Shown one piece after another: positions 4,075 through 53,615 of a stretch of 64,000 nucleotides of DNA. Origin of the DNA: Psammoneis japonica. Its lineage: Eukaryota. Numbering within the stretch: the first letter of the stretch is position 1; each line of letters begins with the position of its first letter. Where the stretch lies: contig QPGO01000073.1 in NCBI GenBank assembly GCA_008632985.1, forward strand, positions 186,001 through 250,000. Reading direction: 5' to 3'. The notes under the pieces were generated by a model. That model was not told where the DNA came from. It searched no databases and saw only the letters and a program-made list of their open reading frames with translations. The position numbers and the translations under genes were made by a program.

Positions 4075-6979
4075 CAGGCAGGAGGCACAGTGGGAGCGCG
4101 AGAGCCGCCCAGAGACAGTCTGCCTGCAAACATTTGTGGAAGCACTCGACACAGAGATGTGGCCAATTTGCCGGAATTCTGCAATCACTTGGCCAAGCTG
4201 TTGCTTTTTGCTGACAGAAGGGCACAGTGGCTTGACACCCAGCATGCAAAAAGTGCTGTCTCAGCTGCGTTGAAGTGACACCAAGAAAAAATCAACAAAG
4301 TTGCTGTGCTGCACCTTCATCCATGGCTCACCTGCCTGCACCCATCTTCTCTCCATTGCGAGTGACCAAAAAGAAAGCTTCAGATGTTTGTGCAGAGCTG
4401 GTGTGTGAGAACCTCTGCGCACAAGCCAGGGGCATGCAGGGCAAAAGACGGGTGAGAATGAGGCCAGCCCAAGGATTTTCTCATTGCTCTGGTGGCGGCT
4501 GGTTGGAGGACATTGCAGGGCAGCCAAGGCATCTCCAAGAGGTGCCAACGACATTGAAATCAGCTGGTGCACTTTGCCACCAGGAGAAGTTGCTCAAGCT
4601 TGGCCAATGCTCATGTCTTCTTGTGCTGCAAGCTCAGAGCCTGCAAGCTCAGAGCCAATGCTGTTTTCCAATCTCGCGGTGGCCGCAACTCATGCAAGGA
4701 GCCTGGTGGGTGGGGCTGCAATGGCAACAGTGGCCACTCCTGTTTTGGTTTTTGCTGCCATTGCTGCCATGATTGTTGCTGCAATTGCAGCTGGCCAAAA
4801 TGGTGGCAGCCTTGTGGCTGCTGCCACAGCCTCTTCTTTGGCACCCACCGCTGTTGCGCCCATGCCGACCTCCTGAGCCACAGCCTCCATTGCATTGGCT
4901 GCCACAACCATCACTGTCACAATTTGGTTGCCCCCCCACAAATGGGTTTGTTGGGGGTGTTGCATCATTGCAGCCACACATGGTCATCCTGATGTGCCAT
5001 GCATCAGACAAGAGAGTTGCACATGGCTCAGGTGGGCTCTTGCCCTGCTCTCCTTCTTCAAACCCTCTGTGCATGTGCTGCAATTGCTGCACTTCCTGAC
5101 ATCAGCCACCCACTTGCAGCCCCTGCGTGTGTTTCTGTGTGTGATCCAATGCTGATGTCACCCTTTTCAGATGGTGTTTTGCTGGGTCCCCGGATGCCCT
5201 TTTGCCCCTTCTGCCATTGGCGCACCCTTGTTTCACTGCATGCGCAGTGATTTTCAATGGAAATGACTGGTGTCAATGCCTTGTGGTTCGTGTGCTTGTT
5301 GTCTCATTCGGCAATTTTTTGCACAGATTCAGCACAGTTTCTGCATGGATTCAGTGCAAATTCTGCATGCTTGAGAAATGTCCACTGATGATCACAACGT
5401 CTTTGATGCAATCAACTTCCATCCACACCCATCAGCCCTCAATGACTGCTTTTGCTCCTGCTGGCCACTCAAGTTTTTCACCTTGTGTGGTGACAGCACT
5501 GCCCCTCTTCTTGTGGCACTTGGGGAAATGTTTGTTCAGATTTCCATTTGCTGTGTGGATCAGCATTTCTGTGCAAGATTCAGCACCAATTCTCTGCATG
5601 AAAAAACACTTCTTCCAACATCCTTCTCGTCTTGTCACCAAGGCTCCCAATTTCATGCCTGCAAGTTCTGAACATCCCCTTTTCTGCTTGCTGGGCTTGC
5701 TGGCCTGCCAAGCTGGCTGCTCCAAGCAGTGAACTGTTCATTTTTGTTTCAGCAAATGCAAACGCGAAACTCAGCCAGTCTTTGTTAAAGACAAGACCCG
5801 CCCTTGGAAGCAAGGTTTTTCTCCCAGAGTTTGTGCTGACTTCGAACTCTCCACTTGATGCAACTGTCCTTTGCTGCAGTGGTTTGGGTGCTTTGAATCC
5901 TTTCTGAAAGAAAACAATGACCTCATTCTTGTGCAATTTCTCCTTGACCTGTTGTCTCTGGTGCACACTGCTGCAAAGTTGTGCACATTGACCGGCTGAT
6001 CACATGAACTTCTGCCGTGCCCCTCAAAGGGCATTCCGGAAGGGTGGGTGAGCCGGCACCAGTGTTGCTGGGCAAAGGTGTGATGGCACTTAAAATTGGG
6101 CTTGAGTTTTTTTTGCTGCAATTGCCACCACTGCTGCCATTGTTGTTGTTTGTTTTTCATCTTGTGGCCATTCTTGCTGTCAGCAAAAAATCTTCCCATT
6201 TCCCATGCAGTGCAGCACCTGGAGACCTGACAGTTGGGCAAGATGACAACAGACCTTTGCCCAAAAATGCAGCACTGATGCCAACCCAGCAGAAGGTGTG
6301 GAACAAAGCATTTCTCATCTGTTGTGCTTTGTGAGAGTGCTGGGTGCAGCTCTGGAAAAATTGTGGCTGCCTTTTCGGCAAGTCAGCAAACATGCATTCA
6401 CAACATTGTGGGTGGCAGATTTTGCACAAATCAAGTGCAGTGAGCCATGATTGGATGGTCAAAACTCTCAGCAGTTGGGCCCTCATAACTCCCATGCAGC
6501 CACACTCAAGCATTTGCTGGCAGCCAGCGTTTCATGCAAAAACAATGCTCAAAACAGTGGAGCAATTTGGAGTCCATCATGTGCTGCAATTGATGGGCAT
6601 CTTTGCAAAAAACAATCTTTCACATGCAACAATGCCTCAGTGCCATGCTCTCAGCAAAAACAGGGCACACACAAGTGTGCTCAGAGCTGTCGTTGCCCTC
6701 TTGCACATTGGCTCAATGTGCCCCCCCCTCCAAATGGGCAATGTGGACAAATTGTCTTGCACCACTCACAGCTTGGTGTGCAACACTGCAAACATGTGGC
6801 AATTGACCAATCAAGAACTAAAACTAAAGAAGAGACAAAATGCAGACCCGCTGAGTCCACATGGCGTGCACCAATGGTCAAACAAAAAATGAGAGCCCAG
6901 CACTGTGCGCAGCGACACAAAAGCTTTTTTGGCGGGTGGCAGCGCATGACGCGGGAGGCGGGAGGCACACGCCAGTGGC
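4075..6979. repeat. TpA/CpG-depleted degenerate repeat block B
   Basis: Only about five TA in ~2.9 kb (e.g. GTTAAAG, CTTAAAA, ACTAAAACTAAAG). Many overlapping Cys/His/Gln-rich, Tyr-free ORFs on both strands. Confidence 0.7.
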
Positions 6980-7375
6980 GACGCGTTCCAGACGTAGGTG
7001 GGAATCCGTGTGACATTGGGCCCGTAGACTTCTACGTGCGAGCTCCGTAGTAAAATTATACGGTAATTAAAATGTCAATGATCGCCAACAGAAAATGAGG
7101 CAATTTTGCGAACGCACAAACTCGCACATGATTGAAGTACATCATTTTTTACTTAGCCAGTTACATTCTTCAGACATTGAAGAATGTAACTGGCGCATTA
7201 TTGTTTCTATAAATTTGTTATATAAAACGTCTGGGGCTTCGCAAAACAGCGAGTCTGGACAATTTTTTTTAAATATCACACGTAGAAATCTACGTACGAA
7301 ACATACGACGGATGATAAAAATTATTGTTGTCACACGTCAGTACTACGAGCTCCCACCTAGGGCTGGAACGCGTC
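6980..7375. mobile_element. Non-autonomous TIR element (MITE), 396 bp, 4-bp TSD TGGC
   Basis: Left end GACGCGTTCCAGACGTAGGTGGG matches the reverse complement of the right end, GACGCGTTCCAGCCCTAGGTGGG (21/23). TGGC lies at 6976-6979 and 7376-7379. Subterminal inverted motifs GTGTGACA/TGTCACAC and GAGCTCCGTAGTA/TACTACGAGCTC. AT-rich interior with normal TA content. Confidence 0.75.
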
Positions 7376-7499
7376 TGGCAGTGTTTCCAATCATGAGGCT
7401 TTCTGCCCAGTGCCGCAAAATGATGCAGCAGCAAAGCAACAAACGACCGACTCTTCATCTTCGTGAAGCTTTTTCTCACATTTTTTTCACCGTGTTGTG

Positions 7500-8737
7500 C
7501 GAAGAGACAATGGGTGGGACGCCGAATGCTTGTTGCGGTCATCCCTTTGTTTTTGGCAAAGGTGGGTTTTCTTGCCTCTGGTGAGAGCGTGACATCTGCA
7601 ATTTCAACAGGATGAAATCTTTTCGCAGAGTCAGCACCACCATTTTGATTGCTTTGGCAGCATGCATGTCATTTCAGTCATTTTTTTTATCGTGCCTCAT
7701 GCAGCCACTCTCATGAATGAGAGGGGTCAAAAGTTTTCAAAACCGCTTTGGACGCGGTGACAGAACGATCTGAAGCAGCCTTTTGGAAGGCAAACCACAA
7801 GGGTTGCATCAGGGTGCTCAACTCCAGCACCATTCTCGACTGGGCTCCCCGTTTTCGACCTTTTCTAGACTCATTTGACGCGGATGTGGTCAACGGAACA
7901 GATTTAACACAGAGAGACAAGATCTGGGGTGGTGCAACCAGGGAGTTAGTTTTTGATGCAAATGTTTGCAGAGGTGCCAAGGCATTTCAAAATGCTGGCT
8001 CTGTGAAGTAGCGCATTTTGTTCACAGGTTTCAATGAGAGCTGCGGTGGCATTTCCACCCATGTGGAAGGGAGAACAGTTGACTGGGGCGACATTTTAGG
8101 GCATTGGAAGCGTGGTGGGGTGTGCCCTGGATGACGTTCTTTTGCACATCTAAATCACAGCAACACACTGGGGGTGTTCACTGTGCAACATCATTTCATG
8201 GAACATCCAAAAGTCCACTCGACTCCACTTGGACTCAAGCCTGCCATTTCTCCTCTCCTGTTGAAACACGTTCATGCATCTCCCATGAACAAAACCAAGC
8301 TGCTGATGATCAATGACAACGGCTGGAAACACAGAGCGAACATCGCCAGAGCTGTTGAGACAAATTTCAATGGGACTGCAAGGAATGCTCACAATGTGAC
8401 AAAACAACTTGAGCAACCACAGGAACGTTGCTGTGATGAAATGACTGAATCCAAGTTTGTTCTTTGCCCCTCCGGGTTGGGATGGGACACATGCCATCTG
8501 TGGGAGACCCTGATGATTGGATCAATTCCAAATGTTGAGCAGCACTGCAATCGCAGCGATGGCTGGCATGGAATGCTTGAAGGATTGCCGGTCTTGTGGG
8601 TGGAGAACATGGAACACCTCACACCAGCAGTTTTGGAGCATGAGCTTCAGGAATTGCCACAGAAGAGAATGTTTGAGCATGAGAAACTCACCAAGCTTTG
8701 GTGGGTGAATTTCGTCCATTCCTTGTTGCAACACTGA
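7500..8737 (+). pseudogene. Exostosin/GT47-like glycosyltransferase pseudogene
   Basis: ORF 8174-8737 reads SKFVLCPSGLGWDTCHLWETLMIGSIP...LPVLWVEN...EHEKLTKLWW. The family motif is F.LCP.G.G.DTYR.WE.L..GSIP, so YR has become CH. Upstream frames are interrupted and the 5' limit is approximate. Confidence 0.7.
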
Positions 8738-11700
8738 CAGATGAACCAAGGACACTCATTTTCTTGTGGCATGTCATGACCATCAACAGACGGTGAAATC
8801 AACTGACTGAGGGGTTGCCAACTTGAGAGTCATTTTGCCCAGCAATTGTTGAAATGGAACAAAATTGGTGATCCGTGTGTCCTCGCTTGTCAAAGTTGTG
8901 CGAACTCGTCCACGACGATGGTGCGAAGAAAAGCAAAAAGTTCCTGGGCTTGGCAGAATGACATGGGACGAAAAGCCGGGCTTTTCGCATGCACAGGTTT
9001 CAGTTGAAATCACAGTCTTGTGCCGGATGGTCCACAGCTCAACTGCAGAGGAGCCCAACTAGACTGATTGCAGTGGGATTTTTCAACCACTTGCTGATGA
9101 CACGTTCAAACTTTTTTGTCGCCAGGAGACACCAATCTGAGCTTCACCTCTTTCATTTCATTGGCTCGCATGATCTTCTGTGGATCAGCCATTGTCCAAA
9201 TCTGGTCTGTCCAGCAATTGCCGCATTTGTTTCTGTGGACTCAGATGGCCTCAATTCCTCCAATGTTGGCAGAGCAAGTCATCAGTTCATTCGGGCAGTG
9301 TCTGCAGCCATCTGTCTGTGACTCTTCATCTCACTTCTCAATCCCAAACTGCAAAAACATTTGCAAATGTGCTGACACTTCCGCTGTCAATGGTTGTGTG
9401 GCCTCCTGCAGCCAACAACATACCCAAGCTGCAACTTCAGCTGCCAGCGATGATCATTCTCTTGTGAGGTGTGGTCCTCTCCTTGCACATTTTTGCTGCA
9501 CAACCAACCAACCAGAAAAAATGAACAGATCATGCACAACAGCTGGCTCCCAATGAAAGTGAGGGTCATTTTGTTGTGCGGATGTGGCGTGCTTTTTGTT
9601 GTCACTGGGTTGAAGATTGCTCCTTCAGGGGTGCAAGCATGCACATCAAATTCTTTTGCATTTGTCTTGCCACCAGGACCCAACAACTGCACTGACATCT
9701 GAAGAGCTCATGCTCATGACATGTGCTGCAGTTGCCATGAAGACAATCACCACAGCTTGTCTCCCATTTCAAAGCTGGACAAAGAAAGCAGTCAAAAGCA
9801 GGGCAGTCAGAGGCCCGGCGCCCCAAGTCAGCAGCTTTAGATTCCAAGAGAAAAAGAAGGAAGCTTTGTCATTGCCAGATGGCTTTGCTGTTCCAGATGA
9901 CAGCAATGACAGTGACAAAGATGACGTGCCTCTTTGAGCTGTGACTGCCCGCCACCCAAGAAGGGCACATGTTTTGGCATGATGAGGAAAGGAGCACCAG
10001 TCATGCTGGGAAGGGGAGAAACTGCTCCACCCACAGCTGAGTGCTCGCCATGTTTGGAAGAGGACACTTGGGTCCTGGGCAGGGACTGCCATGGCACAGG
10101 ACACAAAGCACTTTGTTGTGGTCTCTTTGGGAGGGAAGCACCAAAAAGGGCAATGCTTTGAGCCACAACAAACTCCTCCATGGCAAGCAAGCAAGCATGC
10201 ATGCTCACTCTGAGCCACAGCGAGCATCACAGTTTGGTGTCTTTGAGCTGTGATTGGAGCAACACCTTGCTTCAAACTGCTGACACAAGTGTGTGAAAGC
10301 AAGCGACATGATGGTCAAAGTGCTCCAAGTGTGGGGAGCCATGAGCACACAAGCACCTTTGTGCCCCCAGCAAGCCACTGGTGGGTCCACTCTGTTTCAA
10401 ACCATCACACAATTTGGGCTGTCTCTGCTCTCAACATCATCACAAGTCACAAGAGCATCAAAGCAAGTGCCACATGTTGGGCACGCACAGCATCTCTGCA
10501 TGACTTTGGCAGCATTTTTTGCATCTTTTTGCAGCACAATTGCTGGGAACCCACTCAACAATTTTCAAATTTGTTTTGCACAAAACAGCTGGTCAGAGTT
10601 TGCAGAGTGTGCTCGCGCTCACAGATTTTCAATTTTTTGAGCATGTGCTGGAAGCACAGTTGTGCTGAAAAACTTGATTGCCCAATGTGTGAGCTGTTGA
10701 GCTTGTGGAGACAATTCTGTCATGTCCGTGGGCTCTCACCTGCCACCATGGCTGGAGTGCACACCCGCTGAGTGACACGAGCATTGCTGTGCTTCAAAAG
10801 CCAGGCTCTGAAGATGTTGCAGGCACCCAATCTGGCTGCACAATAAAAGAAGGCAAGCATGGTGGCATTTTGAGCCTCACAGCTGGCTGAAGGTTTCTTG
10901 CAATGCAAGTCCTGTCAGGAAGGGGAGATGTGCTGGCATCATGTGCCATGGTGAAAAGAGCACTGCCACCAGGGGTGGGGTGGTGCATGGCAGCAGCAAA
11001 TGAAGGAGATGAGAGTGGCAGAGGCAGAGGCACTGTTTTTTGTTGTTGTTGGATGTCAGCACAACAAGGTGTCTGTTGCAAGCTGTTGGAGCCAAAAGCA
11101 GCAAGACAAAAAATCTCAGATTCATTTGAGCACAGCCATCCAAGAGCAGTGCTGCAAACATTGACATGCACAGGGGCAACAGCACAAAACATGCACATCA
11201 CTTGCACATGATTGTCTTGCAAGTGACTTGTTGAAATGACCAAAATTTTTGTCAACTGTCTTGTGAGCTGAGAAAATGTGAAGTCATGCACTCCAGCTGC
11301 CCTCTGGCACTTTTGCCAGTTTGCCTCAGGGAGTGGGTGGCCAAGCGCATGGCATTGTCCTTGGCCTCAGCCACGCAGTGCCCCCAAAACAGTGGTGCCA
11401 GTCTAAGAAACATGCCATCATCACAAAAACAAAAGCACATCCACTGCAGCTGAAACTTGCTGTGCTTTCATCAGAGTGTGCACTGCAGTGATTGTTGAGG
11501 TGCTGCCTGTCTCACAGCAATTTGCAACCTTTTCACAGGTGACATTTTTGCACTGTGGCAGACAGCTGGTTGGGCACATGGTGAATGTGTGCCAACTGTG
11601 ACAGGCAAACATTTTCATGCTGTGGGGCACTGCCCCCCCCCCCCCCCCCCCCCCTCCTGTGAGGAAAACACATGTCACTGTGAAACAGCCACCCATTTTC

Positions 11701-11799
11701 CCTGTGAGAGTGCCCACCCTCTGTCCCTGCAAAACTGGCACCACCAATGCAGAGAGTGGTGGAACACAAGATTTGGAGTGGGGCCAAAAAAAAAAACAG

Positions 11800-12920
11800 T
11801 CAAGTTCAAAGAGATGGCACTCACTGTGCCAAGGAAAAACAAAGCCTCTGAGCTCCAATCACCTTTGGGACAAGACACCCATCAAGTCAATCTGGAGAAT
11901 GATCAACACAAGTGGGTGGACGCAGAACTCAAGTGGGGCAGACTCAAGGTTAGACTGCAAGCAGGCACATGGCACAATGTGGCAGCACCCCATGCAAAGC
12001 TGCCACTCAGCTTTGATGGCAACAAAGAACTCCAAAGCATTGAGGACACTGCAGCCCAACAAAGAACATGAGCTGGAAAATGTTTTGCATCACAAGAGAA
12101 CGCAAACTTGCTGCAGTCAAGTGACAGCTGCCAGATGTGCTCCCAGACTCATGCCACAAGCCTGGAGCAGCAAAGAGAGTGCAGAGACTCAATGTGGCAA
12201 CGTGGGTGCCAGTGTGTGACATTGAGTGCCCAACTCCACCCCTGGTGTGACTCAAAGAAAACACAGAAATGCTTGAGAAAGCATGCAAGGAAGCAAAAAA
12301 CATCCCAAGTGCCACAGAATGCACTTGATGGAATGGCTGTGGGAACAAGCACCACCTGCATGTGTGCCACAGTGTGCAGGGTGCTGCACAGATGACAAGT
12401 CACAATGGCTGAGTTTGCTCTGAACCTCTTGTGCTGCAGATGACTTGTCAATGACACAGTTGGAGTTTGGAGTGTGGGCTGGAAACAGTGGAGAGACTTG
12501 GGGACTTTGGAAGCCTTGAAAATGAGCTCAACAGCTCAGGCAACCTGCAGTGGGTTGCCTCCCCACTCTCCACCTCTGCAGTCTTTCTGGATCTGGGCAT
12601 GAAAATTGGAGAAGATGGGTGCATTGTTGCCAAACACATCAAAAACCAGCAAACCTTTGTTTGCACATGCTTTGTTTAAAGAGTGTCATTTGTGGCAACT
12701 TGTGATGATTCTGGATGCAAAGCTCTGATGTGCACAGTTGCACCAATGCTGCAGAAAAGATTGCAAAGAGACTTGTCATGAGAGGTCACAACCAAAATGC
12801 CCAGCCGCCACCAAGAGGCATGCCACGAGTGTCAAGATGGCACAGTTGCAACCACAAAACTCAAAAGATGCCCTGATCAAAACCCACCTTGACAAACCAG
12901 AAGGGGAGCAGGTCTCATGA
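11800..12920 (+). mobile_element. Degenerate reverse transcriptase relic, Penelope-like retroelement
   Basis: DGMAVGTSTTCMCATVC at ~12327 corresponds to GTAMGT..ACMYAT.Y. LCCR*LVNDTVGVW at 12429-12470 corresponds to LYYRRLVDDI.G.W. LNSSGNLQW...VFLDLGMKIGEDGCI corresponds to the FLDL motif. Boundaries approximate. Confidence 0.7.
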
Positions 12921-15615
12921 CACATTGAGCCACTGTCATCAGCTGACGGGGTCAAGTTGTTTGCTGCCATGGCCAGTTGTTGACTGACAACAACAAACAG
13001 AACAGTGCACGTGGGTTGTGACAGTGTGCGCTTTTGCTTTTCATTGTTTGGGGGGAGAGCGCACTGTTGTGAAGTGTGTGGAAAATTGTGCATGTAAAAA
13101 AAGAAAAAAAAACACTGAAAATGCCGTGGGCCAACGGGCTGTGCAAATCTGGGAAGTGTGAAGAAAATTGCAAATTGAGGGTGGGAGGGTGCATGCATGA
13201 GGTGGGCTGCACACATGCAAGGACACACACACATGAGCAGGGAGGACAAAGTTAAAACCAAGTTCAGTTGACAGGCATCAAAAGAAAAACAAAGCCAATT
13301 GAGACATCAGATGAAACACTCAAAACAAGCGCATTTTGTTGAACACTGTTGCTGACATTTTTCAAATTTGACTGGCTGACAATTTTGATGGTGGGTGTGC
13401 AAACATTTGCCAAGGAAAGTGGAAACCCCTGAATTGCACCCTCTGGTGTCCCACCAAATGTTGAGAGCCACACAACAACAATTTCCAACAAGACATCTCC
13501 ATCTCCAATCAGGCCATGCTGACTCTTTCAAGGATGCACCGGCACTGTTTTGGGTGGCTCATAATTTTCTGTTTTTTCTGGGTGGCACACCTCACCCACA
13601 CTGTTTTGCAGCACCTCTGTGCACCCCCAAGCACTTGTGATTGCAAGCATGTCTGCCCCCCCCCATCAAGGCTGTTGCGCTCAGACCTTTGTGCAAACTG
13701 CGCTCATCAGCCTTCAAATGCCAACTGTTGGATTTGGTGCAGGGCTGTGTTGTTTAACAGCAAACCACGGTTTTGGGCCAAACTTGCACTGCCCATGGCA
13801 GACAAGCCACAACTTTCCAGCAAATGCCAGCAATTTTTCCACAATCATTGTCTGCGCATTCCATGTGATGTCTTTCCAATGGACAATCAAGCTCTTGCTG
13901 AATTTTTTTGGCAAATGCACACTCAGTGTGGCGCACCTGGATTGTTCAAAAAAATTCACAAGCTCCAGACAAAATCAACTGTGCATTCTGTTTGTTTTTC
14001 AGGCCCCATTTTCACCATGTGCAGCACAGTGTCAAGGACAAACAAAATGGTCATTGCCCCTCCACATCATTGTCAATGCAGCCTGCTTCATTTTTCCAAA
14101 GATGCCTCAGGCACCTTCTTGCATTGAAAGTGTGAGGAAACAGTGCACACCACCCAGCAGCCCTGAAAAAAAAAGAGCTGTTTTGCTCATCAACACATGC
14201 CACCAGAGTGTCTGTCCATTGGATGCAAAGTCTGTGAGATTTCAACCATTCACCAAGCACTGGGATGACAATCGAATCTTTGGGAAGACAAGCACAAGAA
14301 AGGCATTTGAGCAGGAATTGCCGCAACTTTGGCCCAACATGTGATGGGTGAAATGTGAGATCATCACCGACAAAGCTGCAAGGCCAAATGTTTGTCAAAC
14401 AGCTGAGCCTTTCACAGTGAAAACAACCCTTCATTCGGGTCACTGAAATTTGTGCAACATTGTGATGTCTCTTGTTGCTTTGCAACAAAACAAGCATCGC
14501 AACCTCAAAAGACAACACATCAAGCAAAGCAATTGCATTTTAAGCTGCTCACAACGTTGGTTTCTTGACAATTTTGACAGTGCCTTGATTTGTCAATGTG
14601 AAGAGGGTTGATCCATCAAAAAAAGTGCTGCGCACCTCAAACTTCTTTGATCATGGCTCGGCACCATCATTTCTGCCACAGCCACACAACACAGCAATGG
14701 TGCAACAGCAACAAAAAACACATTTGTTTTTAAACACTTGTGAGTGAGTGGAGCAGGACAAATCATGGTGGTTGCATCGGATGTGTGTCATCGAAAGGGG
14801 TGCCATTCGATGTCATCGTGTTGTGGCCGACTTCGGGGACGAAACGATGTCAAGAGGACACAACATCCACAGCAATCACAATGCACACACTGTGTGAACA
14901 ATTTGTGATGCAATGGAATCAACAGATCATTGACATTTCTTTGACAGGGTTTGGGCGCATCATCGAAAATTTGTCACGCGCCATTGTTTTGTCTTCTTGT
15001 GCCAACAAAAGCAACCTCCGCAGCACCAAAAATGAGTTGCCAGCTAAAAAATTGAGCACATCTAAAAACATTGTTCATTTGATGATGTTGATGCATCAAT
15101 GATTGGATCTCTGCAAGGTGCTCGCTGTGTCGAAAATGCGCCGTTGCCGAAACAGCAGAGTTTTTGACTTGGAGCCACTTGGAGCATTTTCGCGGGGAGT
15201 TCGATGTTTTCAAGATCTTCGTCTTTAAAGATTTTTTGCTTCCTCTCGTAGAATCTGCACTGGTGCCTGCGTTTAAAATGATGTGTTTTAAAACTTTCCT
15301 GCTCATTCTACATCATTTTGATTCATCTTTTTGGTTTGGTTCATTCGTGCCTCGGCACCGTTTCAATCCCGAATCACGACTGAGGTTCATGACTCAAATG
15401 TTCAAGCGGCGAAATGAAGATCGCGAGTTCCTGTCGATCACCATCACTTTGAACTTCTTTCTCATCATCGTACCACTGCATTACTCCATTATTACTTCAG
15501 TGTTGGATTTAGCTAATTGAACTGCGTGTAATGCATCACCAACCATTGTGACAGTCGATCAACAGAATACAACACGAGCTAGAGAGAGTATCCGAGGCGA
15601 GTGACACCATAGGCA

Positions 15616-17848: not shown

Positions 17849-18055
17849 CTAGCTAGGGGGGCAGGAGCAGGGAGGCCGTCAAGGCTTCGCGAATCTATTT
17901 CTAGATTCTGTTTGCCTGGGCAATTTGTCATGTGCGAGTCCTTTCTCCTCGATAGTCTTCGTCTTGAGACATCTTTCTCAAAGTTTGTGGTGCTTACATT
18001 ATTAACAAGTCACAAGGCCTTTGATAGTAGGAACCTCTCCCTATTTTAAATCTGT

Positions 18056-18345
18056 CTCTAGTCCTGCACTTGATCGTTAGTTAGATATGGTAGACTCTAG
18101 GGCTACTAGCTAGTAGTCTAATAGTCTCCATATACTCTCTAGAGTGCTCTAGAGTAGAGCCTCTACTAGCTACTATTTACTAGCTAGAGCTAGTAGCTAC
18201 TAGCTAGAGTATAGTATCTAGCTACTACTAGCTAGAGAGAGCGTAGCTAGCTAGCTAATAGTAGCTACTACTAACTGCCGGTAGAATAGAGAGCTACCGT
18301 AGTAGAGTAGAGAGCGAGTACAGTAGTACTGTACTTAGCTTACAG
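18056..18345. repeat. CTAG/TAG/TAC-rich low-complexity intergenic tract
   Basis: Dense irregular repeats of TAG, CTAG and CTAC (e.g. CTACTAGCTAGAGCTAGTAGCTACTAGCTAGAG) ~350 bp upstream of the CHD gene. Confidence 0.75.
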
Positions 18346-30280: not shown

Positions 30281-30620
30281 TCAGACTTGTCCTTGTCGCC
30301 CTTCACACGCCACACCACAGTGTGTTAACTTTTCGTCGCAAAGATCTTTTGTCGAGCTCTTCAGGAGTTCCACAGATTCGTGCTTCTTGCCGCGGAAGAA
30401 GGACGCCCACCACAGCGGTGTTCCTCCTTTCCCACGGTTTGTTCTCTTGTTGACATTGGTCCCATTGTCAACAAGATTCTGCACAACTTCAACACTGCCA
30501 GCTCAAGCGGCCTCGTGCAAAGGTCTCCATCCGCCATTGGCATCCTCTTGATGAAGCAATGAGGCATCTCACACAAGACTGGCTCAAAGACAGCTTGGGT
30601 TCACCCCTGTTCTGGGTAAT
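30281..30620 (-). pseudogene. Ankyrin-repeat gene fragment
   Basis: Minus strand reads EDANGGWRPLHEAA*AGSVEVVQNLVDNGTNVNKRTNRGKGGTPLWWA. The internal stop is a TGA where CGA (R) is expected. Confidence 0.7.
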
Positions 30621-31830
30621 TAAAAGACTTGCTTCAGTGATGATGCTGCTTGGCTCAGATTCAAATGACACACCTTGAGCGTGGACATTGACACCAGCCA
30701 CTGATGACAAGAAGACCAATGGGGTGATGATGACACGGATGAAGAAGCTTCTGAAATTGACGACAATGCACCCAAGGAATGTGACCATTCTGGTTGGTCC
30801 CTGTCTGCTTCTGCTGCTCTCAACTGTGTGCTGAAAGTGTGGGCCAGCCGGTGCCGGCCTGGCTGGCAAAGGAGTGACACCACTTTAAACTTGGATTTGA
30901 TTTTTTCTCTGCAGGGTCCTCACAAGCCATTGGTGGCAGAACATCACTCTTTCTAAATCTTCCAGAGGCCAGCAAAAGTGATGGCAGAGTTGGTGCACCT
31001 GTCCTTTTTTTCTTCAAAGCCAGCACACTGGCTCTGGCACACTTGGCGCTCCTCAAAAGCCATGCCAGCATGCAAAAGAAGAAGCGACAGTGACGCAGTG
31101 GTGTGTTGCAAGTTTTTGGAAGAGACCTGTTCTAGATTCTGGCAAAGGGTTTGTTGTGACAGGTGCTGCTCTCTTGTTTGACAGAGCCCCTGTCCCCAGC
31201 TCAAAACAGACTCATCTTCTTTGCTCAGCACCGCTCACTGAACAAGCTTTGTGTCATCTGCTGGGGGGCGTTGTTCCTTGTGGACAAAGCTTGCACTGGC
31301 ACCAATGTTGGACAAGGCCGCTGATGACTCTCATTTGTGCTTCAATCAGTTTTGGTGCTCACAGGTTCTTGCAGCCACAGTGTGTTGATCTTGCTGCTGT
31401 GCTGCAGTGCATCTCTTTTTTGGCTTGCCATTTGAGGAGGGGGGTGCCAACAAAAGAGTGTGAGTGACACACATGTGGCACAAAGGACACAAAGAGAGGA
31501 AACATTCAAATCAGCAGAAAATTCATGTCTGGAGAGCAAATCTTCAAGCCAATGTAAGCAACACACAAAGAGGCTGCCAGCAAGGCACAGATTGGAGCTT
31601 GGAGCATGCACCCCTGCTGGCAGTGGGAGGTGTCACTCCCACATCTCGCCGGCCGGCTCTGCACTGCTTGCAGCAGACTTCTTTGCATGGAGACATGGCA
31701 AACAAAAAAGTTCACACACACACACACACATGCAGGGGCATTTTAGCTAGACTCAGCTTGAAAATAATGTGTTGTGGCCAATGGCTGCCCATGGCTCCTT
31801 TTGAGAGAGTGTTCACGCGAGTGTGATGCT
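30281..31830. repeat. TpA/CpG-depleted block D
   Basis: Few TA, mostly TTAA/CTAA/CTAG/TTAG. Tyr-poor ORFs on both strands. Confidence 0.65.
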
Positions 31831-34183: not shown

Positions 34184-34519
34184 GGCGTGTTCTTGTTGCG
34201 TTGTGTTGTGACTGCGTTCGTTTTGTGTGAAAACATGCCGCCGCGCCAAACGGTGGATGGCGTAGGTTCTGGTACAAAGGGTACACAGAAGACCGACGCG
34301 GCTTTGGCCGGCGCGTAGAATCCTATGTGATTTATTCAGAAATTTAAGGGCGTATAAAATATTCATTTATGACTAATTTAAGTTATTTGAAATATATAAC
34401 ATTTTGGATATTGATGTTTATCAATGAAAATGCTAGCTTCACGACTATATATTTTCAATGATCCGACGTCATCTTTCGAAATTTCGTCTTGCCCACTTGG
34501 TTGCCAACACAGTGGTGAG

Positions 34520-34616
34520 CGGTTTCTTGTCCTTCTTCTTGGCAGCGTCACCAGCACAAACATGTGTGTGAAAGGGACGCGACTGTTGTGTGCAAGGCAC
34601 TGTTGTCATTGTTGAT

Positions 34617-34652
<36 letters not shown>

Positions 34653-35040
34653 TGGCTCACACACAAGCAGAAAACGGAGAGCTGCTCCTCTGCCGCAGAG
34701 AGACATGCGAGGAGGGCATTCTCTGGAAATGAATGTGCTGGATTTCTGCTTGCCATGTGATGCTCAACCATGATTTTGTGTCTTTGTTGTGTGAGCAGTG
34801 GTCTGAGCTGACTTTGTCATGCCAGAAAAGCATGTGCTCTGGTCAGCCGCAGGGCCAGCACAGCATGTGCCAGAGCAGTCGTGCCAAACCAGAGAGGGGA
34901 AGAGCCAGCCATTGCAGTGTCACAGGAGATCTGAGTCATGTGCAGTAACAGCACAGTGGATGTCTGAACAAGTCTCTGGTCTCTCTACAGTGGTTGGTGG
35001 GAGTTTGATCAGAGGTGTCAGTCGATTCTTCCAGGAACTC
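34520..35040. repeat. TpA-depleted block E with (GA)n microsatellite (~34619-34647), flanking the copia 5' LTR
   Basis: Only a couple of TA in ~500 bp; TG/CA rich. Confidence 0.6.
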
Positions 35041-35316
35041 TGACAGGATTTGAACAGGATTTGGATGCGCGCGAAGCATCGCGCGCTGTTTAGTTTACCG
35101 CGCACAGTTTTGTGTGCTTTAGTTCCGCGCGTTCACGCGCGATGCAGTTTGCTTTCGAGCCACAAGGCTCACAAGAATGACAACAGTGGCCCGATTGTGC
35201 CGACTCACACGTCTTTCGGCTCCTGTGACGGTCTCTGAGCGGAGACTCATCTGCTGTTTAGACAGCAGTGAGGAGTTGTTGTTTGAATTCTTGCCATTTG
35301 CCTTCAATTTCTGTCA
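35041..35316 (+). repeat. 5' LTR
   Basis: Starts TGACAG and ends CTGTCA. 266/276 identical to the 3' LTR by manual alignment. Confidence 0.95.
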
Positions 35317-36258
35317 GATTAACAGTCTTGCTCATTGTCAACCCATTGAGCAACCGCCATCGTCGTCGTTGATTTACCAACGACGCCACTTCAATTCTGC
35401 GTGGACCTCCGTACACATTCTACATACATCGGCAAGTCTACGCGCGTTCAACACCAGGGCATCGGCAGGAAGTTAACGTCACCGTCAAGTCTCCTTACCG
35501 CTGGATGTCTGGATTGATTGCACTGCCTTTGATTGCTGAAGACTTGCATTCAACGGTCACATCCAAGTCCATCCTTGATCATCATCCCTTGACACACCTG
35601 TTCCTCGGTTGACGGTCAAGAACCCCACATGTTCAAGGATCTTAGTCGCTGAAGACACACACACATGTGTGCACATCCTCACGGCCAAGAACCTTTATCC
35701 ACTCTTCGGACTGCGGTTTTGCTGCCACTCTGCAAGCACACCGAGTCCACAGCACCTGATCTGCCCCGGACTGCTGGTGCTCTGCAGTTCTGCTGGGTCC
35801 ACGAGGACGACTGTGAGAGCAAGCAGCCGTGATCACAGCCTGCGTTGGGGCGAGGGTGCTTTCCCGCGTTTGTTCGTTCGTCCACAGTGCCCAACGCCTG
35901 CGTCAACTGGCCAGCCTGATCGGGAAATCCAACCGACATAAAATGAGAACGGTTCGGGGGTCTTGTCCACCTCTAGTCAGCTTACCTGCAGGGGTTTACA
36001 ACCCGCCACTCCGCTCGTAAGCAACCCAAAGCGCCACTGGCTGCGGGTTCGGACGTGCCGGCACAACTCTACGGACCGGATGGGAAGTTTAGCACTTGAC
36101 AACGAATGGGATAACAAAAACCCGGCGACTTCTGATTTTAAGATAGTTCAAGATTTCAAGTCAAGTCCATTTCAAGTCAAGTCCATTCTCACCCAAGTTT
36201 CGAGTCTACCTTCGCTTCCCAACCAGAATTGATTGTCCTGACACCACTTTTGTCTACC

Positions 36259-39200
36259 ATGGTTCTCACTCTTCAGCAACAAACCGATGGTTTCGAGCAC
36301 GTTGTTGGAACCGTGCTTGCCCAAGGTGCTGGGAGTCCTCTTCGTTTGGCTTTGGCCCAAGACGGCACGGACTCGCATCAGGAACCATTCACGTTCATGC
36401 CGTCCCAAATCGACTCGCTTGAGTGCGACAACGGCACTGATGTGATCCCTTTGCCCCGTGGTTATAAGAACATGTTAGCAGCACCAGTCAGTCTGTGCAT
36501 TGTCAAAGCACACAAAGGTCTTGACGTTGCCAACGACTCCTCCTTGTTCACGCATGACGAGTTCCTTGCCTGCCGCCTCAGCCCCGACTGCATGTCTTCT
36601 GTGTCCATCGGCAGCTCACCCCTTGCACCTCCACATGTCACCAACCCGACCAAGGCACGCGACCCGGTGCGGGACTTCAAGCGAGGCATCAAGCGTGATC
36701 CCACCGCTTTCACGGCTCTCAAATCCGACAAGCAGTGGCACACTTGGCACACCTCACTTGTGGCACAAGCCCGTGCCCAAGACGTCGAGTGCATTCTAGA
36801 CTCGTCGTACAAACCGACCAGCCCCGAAGACAAACTGCTCTTTGCTGAACAGCAAAAGTGCATGTTCGCCGTCTTCGAACGCATCCTTCTCACCGACAAG
36901 GGCAAGGCTCTCATTCGCGAAAATGTGGGGTCTTCTGACGCACAGACCGTCCACCGCTCCTTGTCTGAGCACGCGCTTGCCTCCACCCGCGCATCTGTCG
37001 AGTCCTCCACCCTGCTCACGCACCTCACCACCGCACGTCTTGGTGATGGCACTTGGAAAGGTCCGACCCACGGGTTCATCCTTCATTGGCAAGATCAGTT
37101 GCGCAAGTGCGAGGCACTCATCCCGGCCAGTGACCACTTCTCTGAAGGACAGAAGTGCGTCATGCTCGAGAATGCCGTGCACCCTGTCGAGGAACTCCGT
37201 GCTGTCAAGAACCAAGCTGATCAGCATCGTACGCAGAGTGGCAAGAGCCTCACATACGATCAATGCTGTGGCTTGCTCCTCTCCGCGGCAGCTCAGTACG
37301 ACAGCACGTTTCAACCCAAGACGACACCTCGAGCTCCCCGACGCGCCACACACGCACACGACGTCTACTCCGAGGAACCGTCCGACGATGTGTTCTACGA
37401 CATTGACAGCGACGTTGACGTCCTTCAAGCCAATGCTGCCTGCACCCGCGGTCCCAGCCTCACCGGTGTCCAATGGAGACGTCTCCCTCCCGACCACCAA
37501 CGGCTCTGGGATTCGTTGCCCGATTCCTCCAAGGCGATCATCCTTGAGCATTCTCGTCCGCCTCCCCGCAACCCGCGAGCCAGTGACTGCCATGAGTCTG
37601 TTGCGGCCAACCTTCACGACCAACGCCTTGGGAGTGACGGTGATGTCAACTTGTCCAACACGACTCCTGCTGACTCTGGTGACTCCGCTCCACATGTTGA
37701 CGCCACTTTGGACAATCCCATCCTGGCGCACCTCACCAAGCGCAAGCCACTGCCACCCGGTGATCTGCAACGTCTGTTGTCTCCTAACCAAGCCCCCAAT
37801 GCCAGTCGACCGGGGCCATCCGCCGCTTCCTCTACCCCGCCAGCTTCTGCAGATGACACAGAACTTAACGGCCGCACTTGCCGCCGCGTCAACAACCACA
37901 ATGTCATTTGCTCTGCCTCTGCTCATCGCTCCACACGCACTGGCGCTCTAGTCGATCGTGGGGCCAACGGCGGCATTGCTGGCGACGACGTTCGCGTCAT
38001 TGCACGCACCTCTCGCCAAGTCGACGTTCAGGGCATTGACGATCATCAATTGGTGGACATCCCCATTGTCACCGCTGGTGCCGTCATTGAGACCCAGCGT
38101 GGTCCCGTCATCGCCATCCTCCATCAGTGCGCATGCACGGGCAAGGGCAAGACCATCCATTCCTGCGGCCAGCTCGAATGGCACAAACAGGATGTCAACG
38201 ATCGCTCTGTCAAGGTGCCCAACGGCTTGCAACGCATTGCCACTCCTGATGGCTGTGTCATCCCCATTGACATCAAGGCTGGCCTGCCTCATGTTGCCAT
38301 GCGACCTTGCGCTGACGCCGAATGGGACACCCTGCCCCATGTCATCCTCACCGGCGATGACACATGGGACCCTTCCGTCCTCGATCACTCTGTCACTGAC
38401 GACGACCAGTGGTACGACGCGATCTCTGACCTGCAGGACGACCCCACTGCCAACCCATTTGACGAAAACGGCAACTACCGTCACCGTGTCGTTGTCAACG
38501 AGACCATCTTGTCCGCTTCCTTGTCTGCCGATCACGCGTCCGCCCTCGATGATCACCTCATTCCGAACGACGACGTGTTCTACGCGTGTCATCTGCATGC
38601 GATTGACCCCAAGGGCGATGACGTTCCACCTCCGGAGCGCACTGTACAGCCCAAGGACCCCCCCTTCGAGTCTCTTCGGCCTTGCTTTGGCTTCCTACCC
38701 ACCGACACGGTCCGTCGTACTTTTGACTGCACCACGCAGTGCGCCCGCATGCCCGCCGGCACACACCTTCGCAAGGCCTTCAAATCACCCAACCCCGCCC
38801 TTAATGTGCACCGTCGCAACGAGCCCATCGCCACTGACACCATTTGTGCCGACACCCCGGCCGTCGACTCTGGTTGCACCAGCGCCCAACTGTTTGTTGG
38901 CACCGAGTCTACCGTCACTGACGTCTACGGCACTAAGACGGACAAAGAGTTTGTCAACACACTTGAGGATCAGATCCGTGAACGTGGTGCCCCATCCAAA
39001 CTCATTAGCGACCGTGCTCAAGTTGAGATCAGCAACAAAGTGCTCGGGATCCTGCGCGCCCTCTTCATCTCCAGCTGGCAAAGTGAGCCTCACCAGCAAC
39101 ACCAAAACTTTGCCGAGCGTCGATGCCAGACTGTGAAGCGCATGGCGAACACTGTCATGGACCGTTTTGGTTCGCCCGCCCACACATGGCTGCTGGCGCT

Positions 39201-41928: not shown

Positions 41929-42151
41929 TTTACCGCGCACAGTTTTGTGTGCTTTAGTTCCGCGCGTTCACACGCGATGTAGTTTGCTTTCGAGCCACAA
42001 GGCTCACAAGAATGACAACAGTAGCCCGATTATACCGACTCACACGTCTTTCGGCTCCTGTAACGGTCTCTGAGCGGAGACTCATCTGCTATTTAGACAG
42101 CAGTAAGGAGTTATTGTTTGAATTCTTGCCATTTGCCTTCAATTTCTGTCA
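41876..42151 (+). repeat. 3' LTR
   Basis: Direct repeat of 35041-35316, followed by TSD AACTC. Confidence 0.95.
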
Positions 42152-49264: not shown

Positions 49265-51280
49265 GAATTCGCATTCACCAAGATCAATCGCACCTGTGTT
49301 GGCAGGCTTGGATTCGAGCAAAAACTGGTTGAGCAGAGATGAAGCTTCATTGTCGATGGGAGCAACCACAATTGCTGCAGCAGAGCCACGTGCACCACAG
49401 ACAAAAGTCCACATCCAGTTTGGGAGGTGGATCATCATCAGCAAATGGGAGAGGTGTTGGAGACTGGCAACCAAAGCATCCACAGAAGGCCCTCAAAGAC
49501 AAGGCCACAGGGGGGATGTGAAGAGTTCTTTGGAGGCTGGAGTTGGGTCAATGTTGGTGACAAGAGAGGGTGCCAGCAGCAAATCCTGCAGGACGAGAGA
49601 GGAGCTGTGGGTCTCTGAGCTCCTCCTGCTCAAGATGCAAGATGTGGAGATCAGCCACAGAGTGCAAATCCCCAAGCAGGGCTTTGAGCATGTGGTGAGA
49701 GGGCATTGTTTGGGAGAAAAAGAGCTGGCATGCTGGCAGTGGCAATGGAGTCTCTGGCAGAAAAACACAACAACCTGTGTTCCAGAAACCTTGCCAAAGC
49801 AAAACAGCAGGCAAGAAGCTGGGTGAGAACAGTGCAGCTGCCAGATGTCCATTCCTCAGCCAACAAGGGGCAATCCAGAAGGACATCATCTTGAGAAACA
49901 TTGGAGCAGGTTTCCATCATGTGCTTGGAGCAATGCACAAGACTGGTCATTGTGGATTCTTGCATGTGTCAGCGCCATCAAACTTGAGAGCACCCAGGTT
50001 CCATGTCATGAAGTGTGGTGAGCTTGCTTGCTGTGTGGGCACACATGTGACACATTGTGGATTTCAAAAGTGTGCAAGCTGCAGTCAGCTCCAGAGACCA
50101 AAGAGATGCAAATCCACAGTCTCACAGAGGTTTTTGGTGTCACAGTGCTCCTGCTCCAATGACAAGCAGACAAAGCACAAGTGGTGTGCCCAGAACAGCA
50201 GAGTTGCATTTCGTTGGGGCCACTCAAATGCCACCAACACAAGATGTGAAAAGACAGCTGAGTCTGCACCAGATGAGTGGGGTGGGTTGGGGTGGCAGAA
50301 GAGTTGGGCTTGGCTTGAAGAGTCTTGCAAATTGCTGCCATTTTCCTCATCTCAATGAGCAACCTCACCATGACAATGGGCCAGGTCTCTTGTTTGCATT
50401 CAACCAAAAGACAATGGTGGCACACTTGACAGCCAGCTGTGCTGTGTGTTGGTTGGTTGCTGGAGCATGCTGGGAGGGAGCACACAGCTGCAGCGTGGTG
50501 TGCTGTGACAGCAGTGTGGAGCTGGGGGATCAGAAGAGCCTGGAGGAGTCAGAGCTGTGTCCCATGGATGAAAAGACCTGGGATCATTTGGGGATTCAAG
50601 TGAGCTTGTTGTGTTGGCACACAACACACCCCCATCCCCGTGTGCAGGTGTCACAGCCAATGTGGTCAAGACCAAAGATTGGTGTGTGCCATGGTGTGTC
50701 ATCATGACAAGTCTGGCACTTTCTCCCTTGAAAGAAGCAGCACACATGCACCAATCTCTTGTTTTTCCTGCACACTCTCTCTCTTTCTCTGCTGAAGTGC
50801 TGCATCAGCTTGTTCTTGCAAAGTGTGTGTTGGTGTGGGAGGAACTGCAGCAATGGCTTTCTGTGGCATGTTCTGTTTTCACATGCCATTGTTGCTGGTT
50901 TCTCCCCAATGTCAGCGGGTGACAAAAAAGACATTCCACTGCAAGCGAGCCAAACATTTTTGCACATCTTCCGCACCTGCTCTCAGCACGCCTCATTGTC
51001 GGGTGTGTGCGGCAGTTTTGAGAGCAGTGCCACAAAAGAAACAAGAGGAGGGACCCCATGTGTTCCTCACCTTAATGCAGCACTTTGCCATTGGCCAAAT
51101 GCACTGGCATCATGCGCCATGTTTTTCTCGTGCTGCTGTTGTCTTTTTTGCACAGCTGCAAATGATGATGAACAACACACACAGGGTGGAGGGGAGATGC
51201 CGATGCACATTTCGAATTCATCGTCGCGCGGTGCCGCGCCCGTTCACGCCACCATTTCCGGGTTTCGGGGACGGCGGACG
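49265..51280. repeat. TpA/CpG-depleted block F
   Basis: I found a single TA (CTTAAT, ~51073) in ~2 kb. Confidence 0.75.
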
Positions 51281-53584: not shown

Positions 53585-53615
53585 TTAATGTGCCTTTTTG
53601 CATTCGGCAAAGACA

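Follow-up and report, generated by a model that had tools for sequence, protein, structure and literature searches.

Hypermutation of foreign DNA from TpA to TpG or CpA has so far been described, among the sources available, only in a 2026 preprint on the rhizarian Bigelowiella natans (Mettrop et al., bioRxiv 10.64898/2026.01.13.699255). In mutation-accumulation lines of that alga, 230 of 231 changes in two viral inserts were A-to-G or T-to-C; the authors place all of them on TpA at ∼1000 times the background rate and name an ADAT2 homologue as a candidate enzyme. The words "context", "flank", "trinucleotide", "tetranucleotide" and "CpG" are absent from the main text (10.64898/2026.01.13.699255). 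Fungal RIP works the other way, by C-to-T changes mainly at CpA that make TpA (PMC2621366). For a DNA-editing derivative of the tRNA adenosine deaminase (TadA/ADAT2) lineage, the TadA-8e variant ABE10, preferential editing of A in a "YAC" context is reported (PMC13109818).

Here we describe a 64-kb window (the whole stretch of DNA analyzed) of the diatom Psammoneis japonica, in which nearly all TA in old, transposon-filled stretches has become TG or CA. As in B. natans, the change affects TpA only, consists of A-to-G or T-to-C only, and is restricted to stretches of foreign or repeat origin that lie next to genes evolving normally. The preprint likewise describes TpA-depleted clusters enriched in CpA and TpG, with reverse-transcriptase and DDE transposase domains among the depleted genes. 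The hosts differ, a stramenopile here and a rhizarian there, as do the targets, which are TE graveyards, an abundant copia family, a MITE and the relic of a host-type gene here and, as reported, viral inserts in B. natans. The extent differs as well: TA o/e has fallen to 0.035, a near total loss, compared with the 0.45 given for an NCLDV insert of B. natans. Fungal RIP shares with our locus transition-only hypermutation of repeats, a dinucleotide preference, and compositionally odd blocks beside normal genes, but it raises TpA and lowers GC, whereas here TpA is destroyed to the point of near absence and GC is unchanged (0.485 in the depleted blocks vs 0.488 for the whole window); we therefore rejected it as the cause.

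Layout of the depleted blocks

Six depleted blocks, 18,521 bp in total, occupy intergenic spaces between Pfam-matching ORFs, and the change to undepleted DNA at every block edge takes no more than a few hundred bases. Taken together, they have CG o/e 0.225, TG o/e 1.85 and CA o/e 1.81. They include a MITE copy and adjoin a copia element, and one of them holds a host-type glycosyltransferase relic:

4080..6940, no strand: hypermutated block 1; in 500-bp windows TA o/e 0-0.1, CG 0.13-0.5, TG/CA 1.6-2.0
6940..7382, no strand: unmutated MITE-like insert of ∼430 bp with long terminal inverted repeats, within the hypermutated tract; inverted ends read directly
7365..15200, no strand: hypermutated block 2, central to the finding; TA o/e 0-0.12, 22 TAs left
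8135..8737, + strand: relic of a glycosyltransferase (C-terminal part, GT47 / RXYLT1) within block 2; Pfam RXYLT1_C E=1.1e-7
30400..31700, no strand: hypermutated block 3; 6 TAs left
34460..35040, no strand: hypermutated block 4, adjoining the copia 5' LTR; 2 TAs left (GTAA, CTAC)
49270..51070, no strand: hypermutated block 5; zero TA in 1.8 kb
59860..64000, no strand: hypermutated block 6, running past the window end; 7 TAs left
63523..63939, no strand: old mutated MITE copy in block 6, aligning to the insert at 6940..7382

The glycosyltransferase relic also matches Exostosin_GT47 (E=1.2e-5), below that family's cut-off. Pfam searches gave no match for the five + strand ORFs upstream of it, and none for the 6 stop-to-stop ORFs of block 1.

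Flanking sequence of the surviving TAs

The initial annotation of this DNA had reported about 27 surviving TAs in its blocks B and C, about 20 of them flanked as pyrimidine-TA-purine (YTAR). Our recount over 5780-15070, with the MITE insert masked at 6940-7365, gives the same figures: 27 TAs, comprising 20 YTAR, 5 RTAR, 1 YTAY and 1 RTAY. Across all six blocks 42 TAs survive, of which 29 are YTAR (TTAA 14, CTAA 7, TTAG 5, CTAG 3), 10 RTAR, 2 YTAY and 1 RTAY. The share of YTAR in blocks 1 to 6 is 4/5, 16/22, 4/6, 0/2, 0/0 and 5/7, respectively, and these per-block counts bear out the further claim that the excess extends to blocks D and G of that annotation.

The excess holds against every null that we applied, with the caveat that the main test comprises only the 42 block survivors and the 13 TAs of an LTR pair considered below. 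In undepleted DNA the YTAR share is 15.9% (253/1590; Fisher p=7e-14 against 29/42), or 18.2% (117/643) outside long ORFs, and it is 4/31 in the unmutated MITE. NTGN/NCAN contexts inside the blocks, which give the null expectation for TAs that arose secondarily out of TG or CA, are of the YTAR type in 21-24% of cases. Binomial probabilities for 29/42 are 2e-14 against a share of 0.159, 2.5e-9 against 0.25 and 1.3e-4 against 0.40. There is also a dose-response, the YTAR share falling from 0.65 through 0.47, 0.36 and 0.35 to 0.13-0.17 with rising local TA density. Since the mutator makes only transitions, it cannot alter whether a flank is a purine or a pyrimidine. After correction for ancestral composition, NTAN survival is far from uniform across contexts, so that the flank dependence put forward in the initial annotation holds.

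Survival is graded rather than all-or-none. Rough estimates, for which the ancestral composition of the blocks was assumed, put TA survival at 24% for YTAR, 3.0% for RTAR/YTAY and 0.41% for RTAY; the corresponding values of -ln survival (1.44, 3.51 and 5.49) are near additive. Among the non-YTAR survivors, RTAY is rarer than RTAR/YTAY (p=0.019). TA is thus most sensitive in RTAY, next in RTAR/YTAY and least in YTAR, and the preference reaches the next base out: among survivor half-sites (n=84), TAAA is enriched 4.4-fold, TAAC 3.0-fold and TAGA 2.6-fold, while TATT stands at 0.13-fold and TATA does not occur. The bias is local, with a reach of ∼3 bp beyond which positions resemble background, and it is strongest at TTTAAA-like sites. 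The description of YTAR as resistant therefore stands in the sense of slower loss, by a rough ∼4-fold per strand, but not in the sense of immunity, since 4/4 YTAR sites of the old MITE copy have changed and not a single TA is left in block 5.

Loss of TA in the copia element and the MITE pair

A copia element between blocks 4 and 5, flanked on both sides by the target site duplication (TSD) AACTC, provides the only comparison with a known ancestral state:

35041..35316, + strand: copia 5' LTR, partly hypermutated, aligned to the 3' LTR; 4 TAs left (TTAG three times, TTAC)
36229..41928, + strand: copia polyprotein ORF, 1899 aa, open; RVT_2 (E=1.2e-24) is its sole Pfam match
41876..42151, + strand: copia 3' LTR, adjoining undepleted DNA; 13 TAs kept

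The LTRs of a retrotransposon are identical at insertion, so the changes between them happened in DNA after integration. The alignment shows 10 mismatches in 276 nt. In nine, a TA of the 3' LTR is matched by TG (7) or CA (2) in the 5' LTR, and the tenth is CG vs CA; the 5' LTR thus has 4 TAs vs 13, with CG at 21 vs 20. The nine mutated sites lie in 4 RTAR, 3 YTAY and 2 RTAY contexts, which gives 0/3 mutated for YTAR vs 9/10 for other TAs (p=0.014). The initial annotation was right that three TTAG sites are common to both copies and that all nine mutated sites are non-YTAR; it overlooked a fourth common TA (TTAC, 35096).

The interior of the element has TA o/e 0.21 with CG o/e 0.92, and its open ORF carries the mutator's signature. 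Tyr makes up 0.9% of the ORF vs 2.8% in host ORFs, and His 4.7% vs 2.5%; at 29 positions with Tyr in the relative L001, the ORF reads Y at 6, C at 6 and H at 5. The family is very abundant, with a summed contig depth >1000x the single-copy level in a public sequencing run (X1). Long reading frames stay open in the blocks, since the change removes TAA and TAG and cannot make an in-frame stop out of a sense codon. Such open but dead frames would mislead gene prediction, and since the blocks keep long ORFs, the annotation of TEs, the prediction of genes and dating by LTRs will be biased in genomes of this kind.

DNA other than retroelements is mutated too, namely the old MITE copy and the glycosyltransferase relic. 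The unmutated MITE has TA o/e 0.71 and CG o/e 1.3, with 31 TAs. None of the 26 TAs that align is retained in the old copy, where 14/26 read TG or CA and the rest fall in poorly aligned parts.

Loss of CG is a separate process, because it lacks a flank bias and is much slower than the loss of TA. Surviving CGs show no YCGR bias (49/244 in the blocks vs 503/2215 in undepleted DNA), and the 5' LTR has lost 9/13 TAs, whereas 1/21 CGs changed (p=9e-5). The CG-to-TG/CA loss in the older blocks resembles the decay of methylated CpG, and 5-methylcytosine deamination is most likely its cause. As the whole cause we rejected such decay; it cannot remove TA and explains the CG part only, as the copia interior illustrates.

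Candidate mechanisms

We consider it probable that these patterns reflect a DNA-level TpA-to-TpG/CpA activity with a local sequence preference, enzyme-like in character and aimed at repeat-filled or silenced diatom DNA, although the catalyst itself is one that we infer. The argument of the initial annotation for a specific catalyst over generic GC-biased drift is supported to this extent: drift is rejected by the unchanged GC, the confinement of change to TA (and, separately, CG), the sharp block edges, and the ∼3-bp flank dependence. An A-to-G change on one strand or the other would yield TpG or CpA from TpA, and the chemistry would most likely be deamination of adenine to inosine in DNA. The graded survival fits a scheme with independent attack on the adenine of each strand, in which one unfavorable flank per strand would slow the reaction ∼4-fold and YTAR would be the sole class unfavorable on both strands. 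Rates would then be fastest at RTAY, intermediate at RTAR/YTAY and slowest at YTAR, with T-tract/TA/A-tract junctions (TTTAAA) slower than any other site.

A TadA/ADAT2-type enzyme is one candidate; T or U precedes its target A, as T necessarily does at any TA site. Natural tRNA substrates of this lineage include Y-U-A-R loops, which is the context that resists here. Block products lean to a TAY target (YTGY 654 vs RTGR 444, compared with 783 vs 711 in undepleted DNA; p=3e-4), resembling the reported YAC preference of ABE10, but polarized events do not establish a 3'-pyrimidine rule: the ratio of events in a Y-T-A-Y to those in an R-T-A-R strand context is 10:3 for the two MITE copies, 4:3 for the two LTRs and 1:5 among the run-contig rows shown, or 15:11 overall (p=0.56), with neither flank singled out.

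The wider proposal, which we put forward tentatively, is that diatoms possess a dedicated DNA base-editing defense, related to the chlorarachniophyte system and independent of cytosine methylation, that erases TpA from transposons and silenced DNA, with RTAY as its optimal site and T-tract/TA/A-tract junctions refractory. If true, TA editing would be an old and widespread defense of SAR-group protists. The saturated end-state seen here extends TA-directed hypermutation to the diatoms, which rank among the most important marine algal groups, and the flank rule (RTAY fast, YTAR slow, TTTAAA slowest) offers a biochemical fingerprint for candidate deaminases or thymine oxidases.

Attack on thymine rather than adenine is the first alternative and in our judgment an unlikely one. 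A TET/JBP-type oxidase would make 5-hydroxymethyl- or 5-formyluracil in TpA, and the flank bias would be the preference of the oxidase; 5-formyluracil mispairs with G, which would give T-to-C. TA-to-CA on one strand is TA-to-TG on the other, so that editing of A and of T cannot be told apart by sequence alone, and TG and CA products are nearly equal in number in the blocks (2062 vs 2166). The sole study of the phenomenon, the B. natans preprint, speaks for adenine in that it proposes a putative adenine deaminase.

We regard as improbable an origin with no dedicated enzyme at all, through a repair or replication bias of heterochromatin or the chemistry and flexibility of TpA itself, with YYRR geometry (TTAA-like) less prone to change. 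The resistant class is symmetric in the duplex, and the pattern could also follow from the structure of YYRR steps rather than from recognition by a protein; the polarized events, moreover, yield no single strand-specific flank rule, and strand-run clustering of TG vs CA is absent from the saturated blocks (runs z -1.8 to +1.1; overdispersion 1.25 vs 1.23 in undepleted DNA). Against this stand an unmutated MITE inside a saturated tract when an old member of its family is fully mutated, the 9:0 difference between the LTRs of a single element, and the 1000-fold local rate in B. natans, reported as switched on only in some lines. Because of these three contrasts, we favor a targeted, regulated activity.

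ADAR and APOBEC offer an animal parallel, a deaminase-type hypermutation with nearest-neighbor preferences directed against selfish nucleic acids. ADAR acts on double-stranded RNA, however, and APOBEC deaminates C, whereas the changes here affect A:T pairs of integrated DNA, with TAG among the disfavored contexts. That ADAR-like A-to-I editing of transposon transcripts was fixed by reverse transcription is very improbable, and we rejected it: the LTR differences postdate integration, the saturated MITE and glycosyltransferase relic are not retroelements, and both strands are mutated about equally. TAG (UAG) is, furthermore, the preferred triplet of ADAR, yet it is among the resistant contexts here, as the enriched TAGA half-sites and the survival of 3/3 TTAG sites in the LTR attest. 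The abundance of the copia family would suit such editing, as would the preference of ADAR for U before the edited A that the B. natans preprint mentions.

Just as improbable is that the YTAR sites, instead of having survived, arose anew through C-to-T at YCAR/YTGR, or that selection has kept them. C-to-T at CA does create TA, and CA and TG abound in the blocks, but YCAR/YTGR account for only the 21-24% of these contexts given above; the three LTR TTAG sites, ancestral because they are common to both copies, survived while 9/10 other TAs were lost, and TE debris shows no evident function on which selection could act.

Modified bases can give systematic miscalls on some platforms, but a sequencing or base-calling artifact is scarcely credible, as contigs of run X1, built from exact 31-letter words at ∼50x depth, match block 3 with 0-1 differences and span 34656-35061 (block 4) with 0 differences, in a run that may underlie the assembly itself and is to that degree not fully independent.

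The same contigs also show two haplotype or strain differences, at 30448-30449, where the window has TG and run X1 has CA, and at 31837, where the two differ by TA/CA.

TA-depleted blocks in the window

The window is eukaryotic DNA with few introns and carries genes for a sideroflexin, a chromodomain/SNF2 helicase, Nse4, glycosyltransferases and a copia-type reverse transcriptase. The best named relatives of the sideroflexin are all from diatoms, at 67% identity in both Nitzschia inconspicua and Mayamaea pseudoterrestris, 61% in Pseudo-nitzschia multistriata and 60% in Cyclotella atomus, with up to 72% identity to unnamed transcripts. On that basis the window is taken to be diatom DNA. The intergenic space contains six blocks, summing to 18,521 bp, in which TA is near zero, CG is strongly depleted and TG/CA is almost doubled:

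Block 1, 4080-6940, TA/CG depleted
Block 2, 7365-15200, TA/CG depleted
Block 3, 30400-31700, TA/CG depleted
Block 4, 34460-35040, TA/CG depleted
Block 5, 49270-51070, TA count of 0 across 1.8 kb
Block 6, 59860-64000, TA/CG depleted

Pooled observed/expected (o/e) ratios for the six blocks are 0.035 for TA, 0.225 for CG, 1.85 for TG and 1.81 for CA, with no shift in GC content (0.485 versus 0.488 for the window). TG and CA products are about equally frequent (2062 versus 2166), and no strand clustering of the two was seen in the saturated blocks. A sequencing artefact was rejected as the source of the pattern: contigs assembled from exact 31-letter words of a public run at ∼50x depth reproduce blocks 3 and 4 with 0-1 differences, though the run may be the assembly's own data and so is not fully independent.

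A change of TA to TG or CA removes TAA and TAG and never creates an in-frame stop from a sense codon, so long open frames persist in edited DNA; the interval 4080-15200 overlaps 37 stop-to-stop ORFs of at least 110 aa. A Pfam search of 25 stop-to-stop ORFs from the blocks left 24 without any match, and the remaining one is a gene relic:

8135-8737, host-type glycosyltransferase relic (C-terminal half of GT47/RXYLT1; RXYLT1_C E=1.1e-7, Exostosin E=1.2e-5), inside a hypermutated tract

There is no second copy (paralogue) of this relic within the window, and it may represent collateral damage or else a duplicate that was targeted. We note that a low-complexity stretch rich in CTAG/TAG lies at 18080-18330, upstream of the chromodomain helicase gene, and that the 500-bp interval holding it (18001-18500) has a TA o/e of 1.8, a composition opposite to that of the depleted blocks.

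Flanking bases of surviving TAs

The initial annotation had claimed that TAs flanked by a 5′ pyrimidine and a 3′ purine (YTAR) make up about 20 of the ∼27 survivors, and our recount of 5780-15070 without the insert at 6940-7365 returned exactly 20 of 27. Across all blocks, the 42 surviving TAs comprise 29 YTAR, 10 RTAR, 2 YTAY and 1 RTAY, whereas YTAR is the least common class in the undepleted DNA of the window (253/1590, 15.9%; Fisher's test, odds ratio 11.8, p=7e-14). Its share is 18.2% (117/643) in undepleted DNA outside long ORFs and 4/31 in the unmutated insert, and the excess persists even when the ancestral share is set at an assumed 40% (binomial p=1.3e-4). We rejected the possibility that the YTAR sites are TAs newly made from TG/CA, for then their flanks should mirror those of NTGN/NCAN; the YR class amounts to only 21-24% of these in the blocks, and the YTAR share of the survivors exceeds that (p=2e-10). 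The bias is also independent of the chosen block borders, since binning each TA of the window by the count of other TAs within 300 bp gives the same trend, with YTAR shares of 0.65, 0.47, 0.36, 0.35, 0.13, 0.16 and 0.17 as neighborhoods go from TA-poorest to TA-richest. Nor is it a by-product of neighboring edits, because a process limited to transitions keeps the R/Y class of the flank.

The local bias is real, but the motif originally proposed is too short, as the effect reaches the next base out. Relative to undepleted DNA, the 84 half-sites of the survivors are enriched for TAAA (4.4x), TAAC (3.0x) and TAGA (2.6x); TATA is absent, and TATT and TACG occur at 0.13x and 0.17x of their undepleted frequency. 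A occupies the next position outward in 35/58 YTAR half-sites of survivors versus 183/506 (p=5e-4), and the TAA:TAG ratio is 49:21 versus 677:663 (p=0.002). The junction of a T-tract, TA and an A-tract is therefore the most refractory site; beyond ∼3 bp from the TA, base composition is that of the background.

Resistance of YTAR is relative and graded, not absolute. Assuming that the blocks started out like undepleted DNA in TA density and NTAN shares, rough estimates of survival are ∼24% for YTAR, 3.0% for RTAR/YTAY and 0.41% for RTAY, and RTAY is too rare even among the non-YTAR survivors (1/13, p=0.019). The corresponding values of -ln survival (1.44, 3.51 and 5.49) are near additive, as expected if the adenine of each strand is attacked independently. 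Under such a scheme, RTAY would offer two good strands, RTAR or YTAY one and YTAR none, and a single unfavorable flank would slow attack on its strand ∼4-fold. At RTAR/YTAY sites, the ratio of changed adenines in a Y-T-A-Y to those in an R-T-A-R context is 10:3 in a pair of MITE copies, 4:3 in a pair of copia LTRs and 1:5 in the public-run contigs among the matches listed; pooled, with this last share again among the matches listed, it is 15:11 (p=0.56). Product counts in the blocks lean to TAY as the target (YTGY:RTGR 654:444 versus 783:711 in undepleted DNA, p=3e-4; RCAR:YCAY 677:447 versus 837:660, p=0.03), a lean to which ancestry could contribute.

Paired copies and the order of TA and CG loss

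Self-comparison of the window yielded only two usable copy pairs, the MITE copies and the LTRs of one copia element with a 5-bp target duplication, AACTC:

35041-35316, copia 5′ LTR, TG...CA ends, adjoining depleted block 4 at the right edge of the block
41876-42151, copia 3′ LTR, TG...CA ends, adjoining normal DNA

Differences between the two LTRs of one element arise after integration. There are 10 across 276 positions, nine of which are TA in the 3′ LTR and TG (7) or CA (2) in the 5′ LTR; the tenth is CG versus CA. All nine TA losses thus fall in the LTR adjoining the depleted block, and none in the LTR adjoining normal DNA. TA as the older state is supported by other copia copies in the public-run contigs, where T at 35077 and A at 35188 are in the majority (54% and 71% of summed depth). 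The nine lost sites are 4 RTAR, 3 YTAY and 2 RTAY, and three TTAG sites are common to both LTRs, as the initial annotation had stated; a fourth shared TA, a TTAC, had been overlooked. Loss is 0/3 for YTAR versus 9/10 for the other classes (p=0.014), which, together with 29/42 in the blocks versus 253/1590 in undepleted DNA, supports the reading of an enzyme-like flanking preference against YTAR. The original observation is confirmed and its interpretation upheld, subject to three corrections: the graded resistance, the reach to TAAA and the missed TTAC.

In the old MITE copy (63523-63939), aligned to the unmutated copy at 6978-7382, 0/26 aligned TAs are kept, among them 0/4 YTAR, so the pair is saturated and uninformative on the relative rates of the classes. 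Because the unmutated MITE sits inside a saturated tract, mutator activity is not a mere constant property of place; it has either ceased at that tract or is directed at particular elements.

TA loss and CG loss are two separate processes, the former fast and first and the latter slow. This order follows from the changed sites of the LTR pair (TA 9/13 versus CG 1/21, p=9e-5), from the copia interior (TA o/e 0.21, CG 0.92), from block edges such as 15100-15470, where CG is restored and the few remaining TAs are still mostly TTAA, and from the window showing no stretch with depleted CG but normal TA. Surviving CGs have no comparable flank bias (YCGR 49/244 versus 503/2215 in undepleted DNA). Slow CG loss is expected from 5-methylcytosine decay in silenced repeats, and the CG loss seen here would match it. 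A 2352-bp metagenome contig with a related copia (L001) has a normal TA o/e of 0.60 and a low CG o/e of 0.24, so in the element of some relative CG has decayed with no editing of TA.

Putative catalyst and the edited repeats

Oxidation of thymine at TpA would leave an identical sequence pattern. Because the LTR differences are post-integration and the DNA transposon and glycosyltransferase relics are saturated, the mutator acts at the DNA level; these same observations, with TG about equal to CA, led us to reject transposon-RNA editing as the main route. The preferred triplet of ADAR is TAG, which does not fit, TAG being among the resistant contexts here. A pyrimidine 3′ of the target A, as in the 'YAC' context described for the TadA-type editor ABE10 (PMC13109818), would fit the TAY lean of the block products, as a lead only.

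In print, the nearest parallel is a 2026 preprint on Bigelowiella natans mutation-accumulation lines, whose main text reports 231 mutations in two integrated viral regions, 230 of them A-to-G or T-to-C and, according to the authors, all at TpA, arising at ∼1000x the background rate in some lines only (10.64898/2026.01.13.699255). That genome has TpA-depleted, CpA+TpG-enriched clusters in which transposon domains are enriched, and its authors suggest an ADAT2-like adenine deaminase (10.64898/2026.01.13.699255). In a lineage other than that of B. natans, the window captures the same kind of process at saturation, a process otherwise known from one preprint; a literature search for such TA hypermutation in diatoms found no report. 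The words context, flank, trinucleotide, tetranucleotide and CpG are absent from the preprint's main text, and the flank rule seen in the window is the first sequence fingerprint of the putative catalyst.

The copia ORF (36229-41928, 1899 aa; RVT_2 the sole domain recognized by Pfam) is fully open yet carries the mutator signature, with 0.9% Tyr, 4.7% His and 2.7% Cys versus 2.8%, 2.5% and 2.1% in eight host ORFs. L001, its sole metagenome relative (49-51% aa identity, 3.7% Tyr), is too diverged for nucleotide comparison and was used for a Tyr test only: at the 29 positions with Tyr in L001, the copia ORF has Tyr 6, Cys 6, His 5, Phe 5 and other residues 7. The ORF is open but, from its residue composition, looks edited to death; an open frame in such genomes need not mean an active element. 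Summed contig depth in the public run is 66,000-270,000 over 35041-41870 versus ∼50 for flanking single-copy DNA, and the family is therefore extremely abundant. Transitions, in either direction, account for most differences among its copies (A>G 93, T>C 98, C>T 108, G>A 90; each transversion type 4-21).

Over 30001-41870, the public-run contigs differ from the window in at least 41 places. The 15 TA-type differences among the matches listed are 9 RTAY, 5 YTAY, 1 RTAR and 0 YTAR; among these matches, the absence of YTAR is only suggestive (chance 0.07 at a 15.9% share). In the young copia, among the matches listed, TG:CA is 7:2 in the LTR versus 2:10 in the 350 bp that follow (p=0.009), a hint, within those matches, of strand-coordinated editing episodes. 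At 30448-30449, two adjacent changes give TG in the window versus CA in the run, as would result if the same TA had undergone editing on one strand in one haplotype or strain and on the other strand in another; with a TA against CA difference at 31837, this is a hint of recent activity.

Tandem Repeats Finder found no arrays in the window. A 687-aa ORF with no Pfam match (57271-59334) holds three diverged units in tandem, each of ∼560 bp (68-74% identity), at 57263-59072, and a 508-bp near-palindrome at 53081-53588 is 84% identical to its own reverse complement. Finally, 51040-51146, at the right edge of block 5, matches 59260-59360, ∼500 bp left of block 6, over 107 bp at 75% identity, and the two may be termini of a single repeat family.
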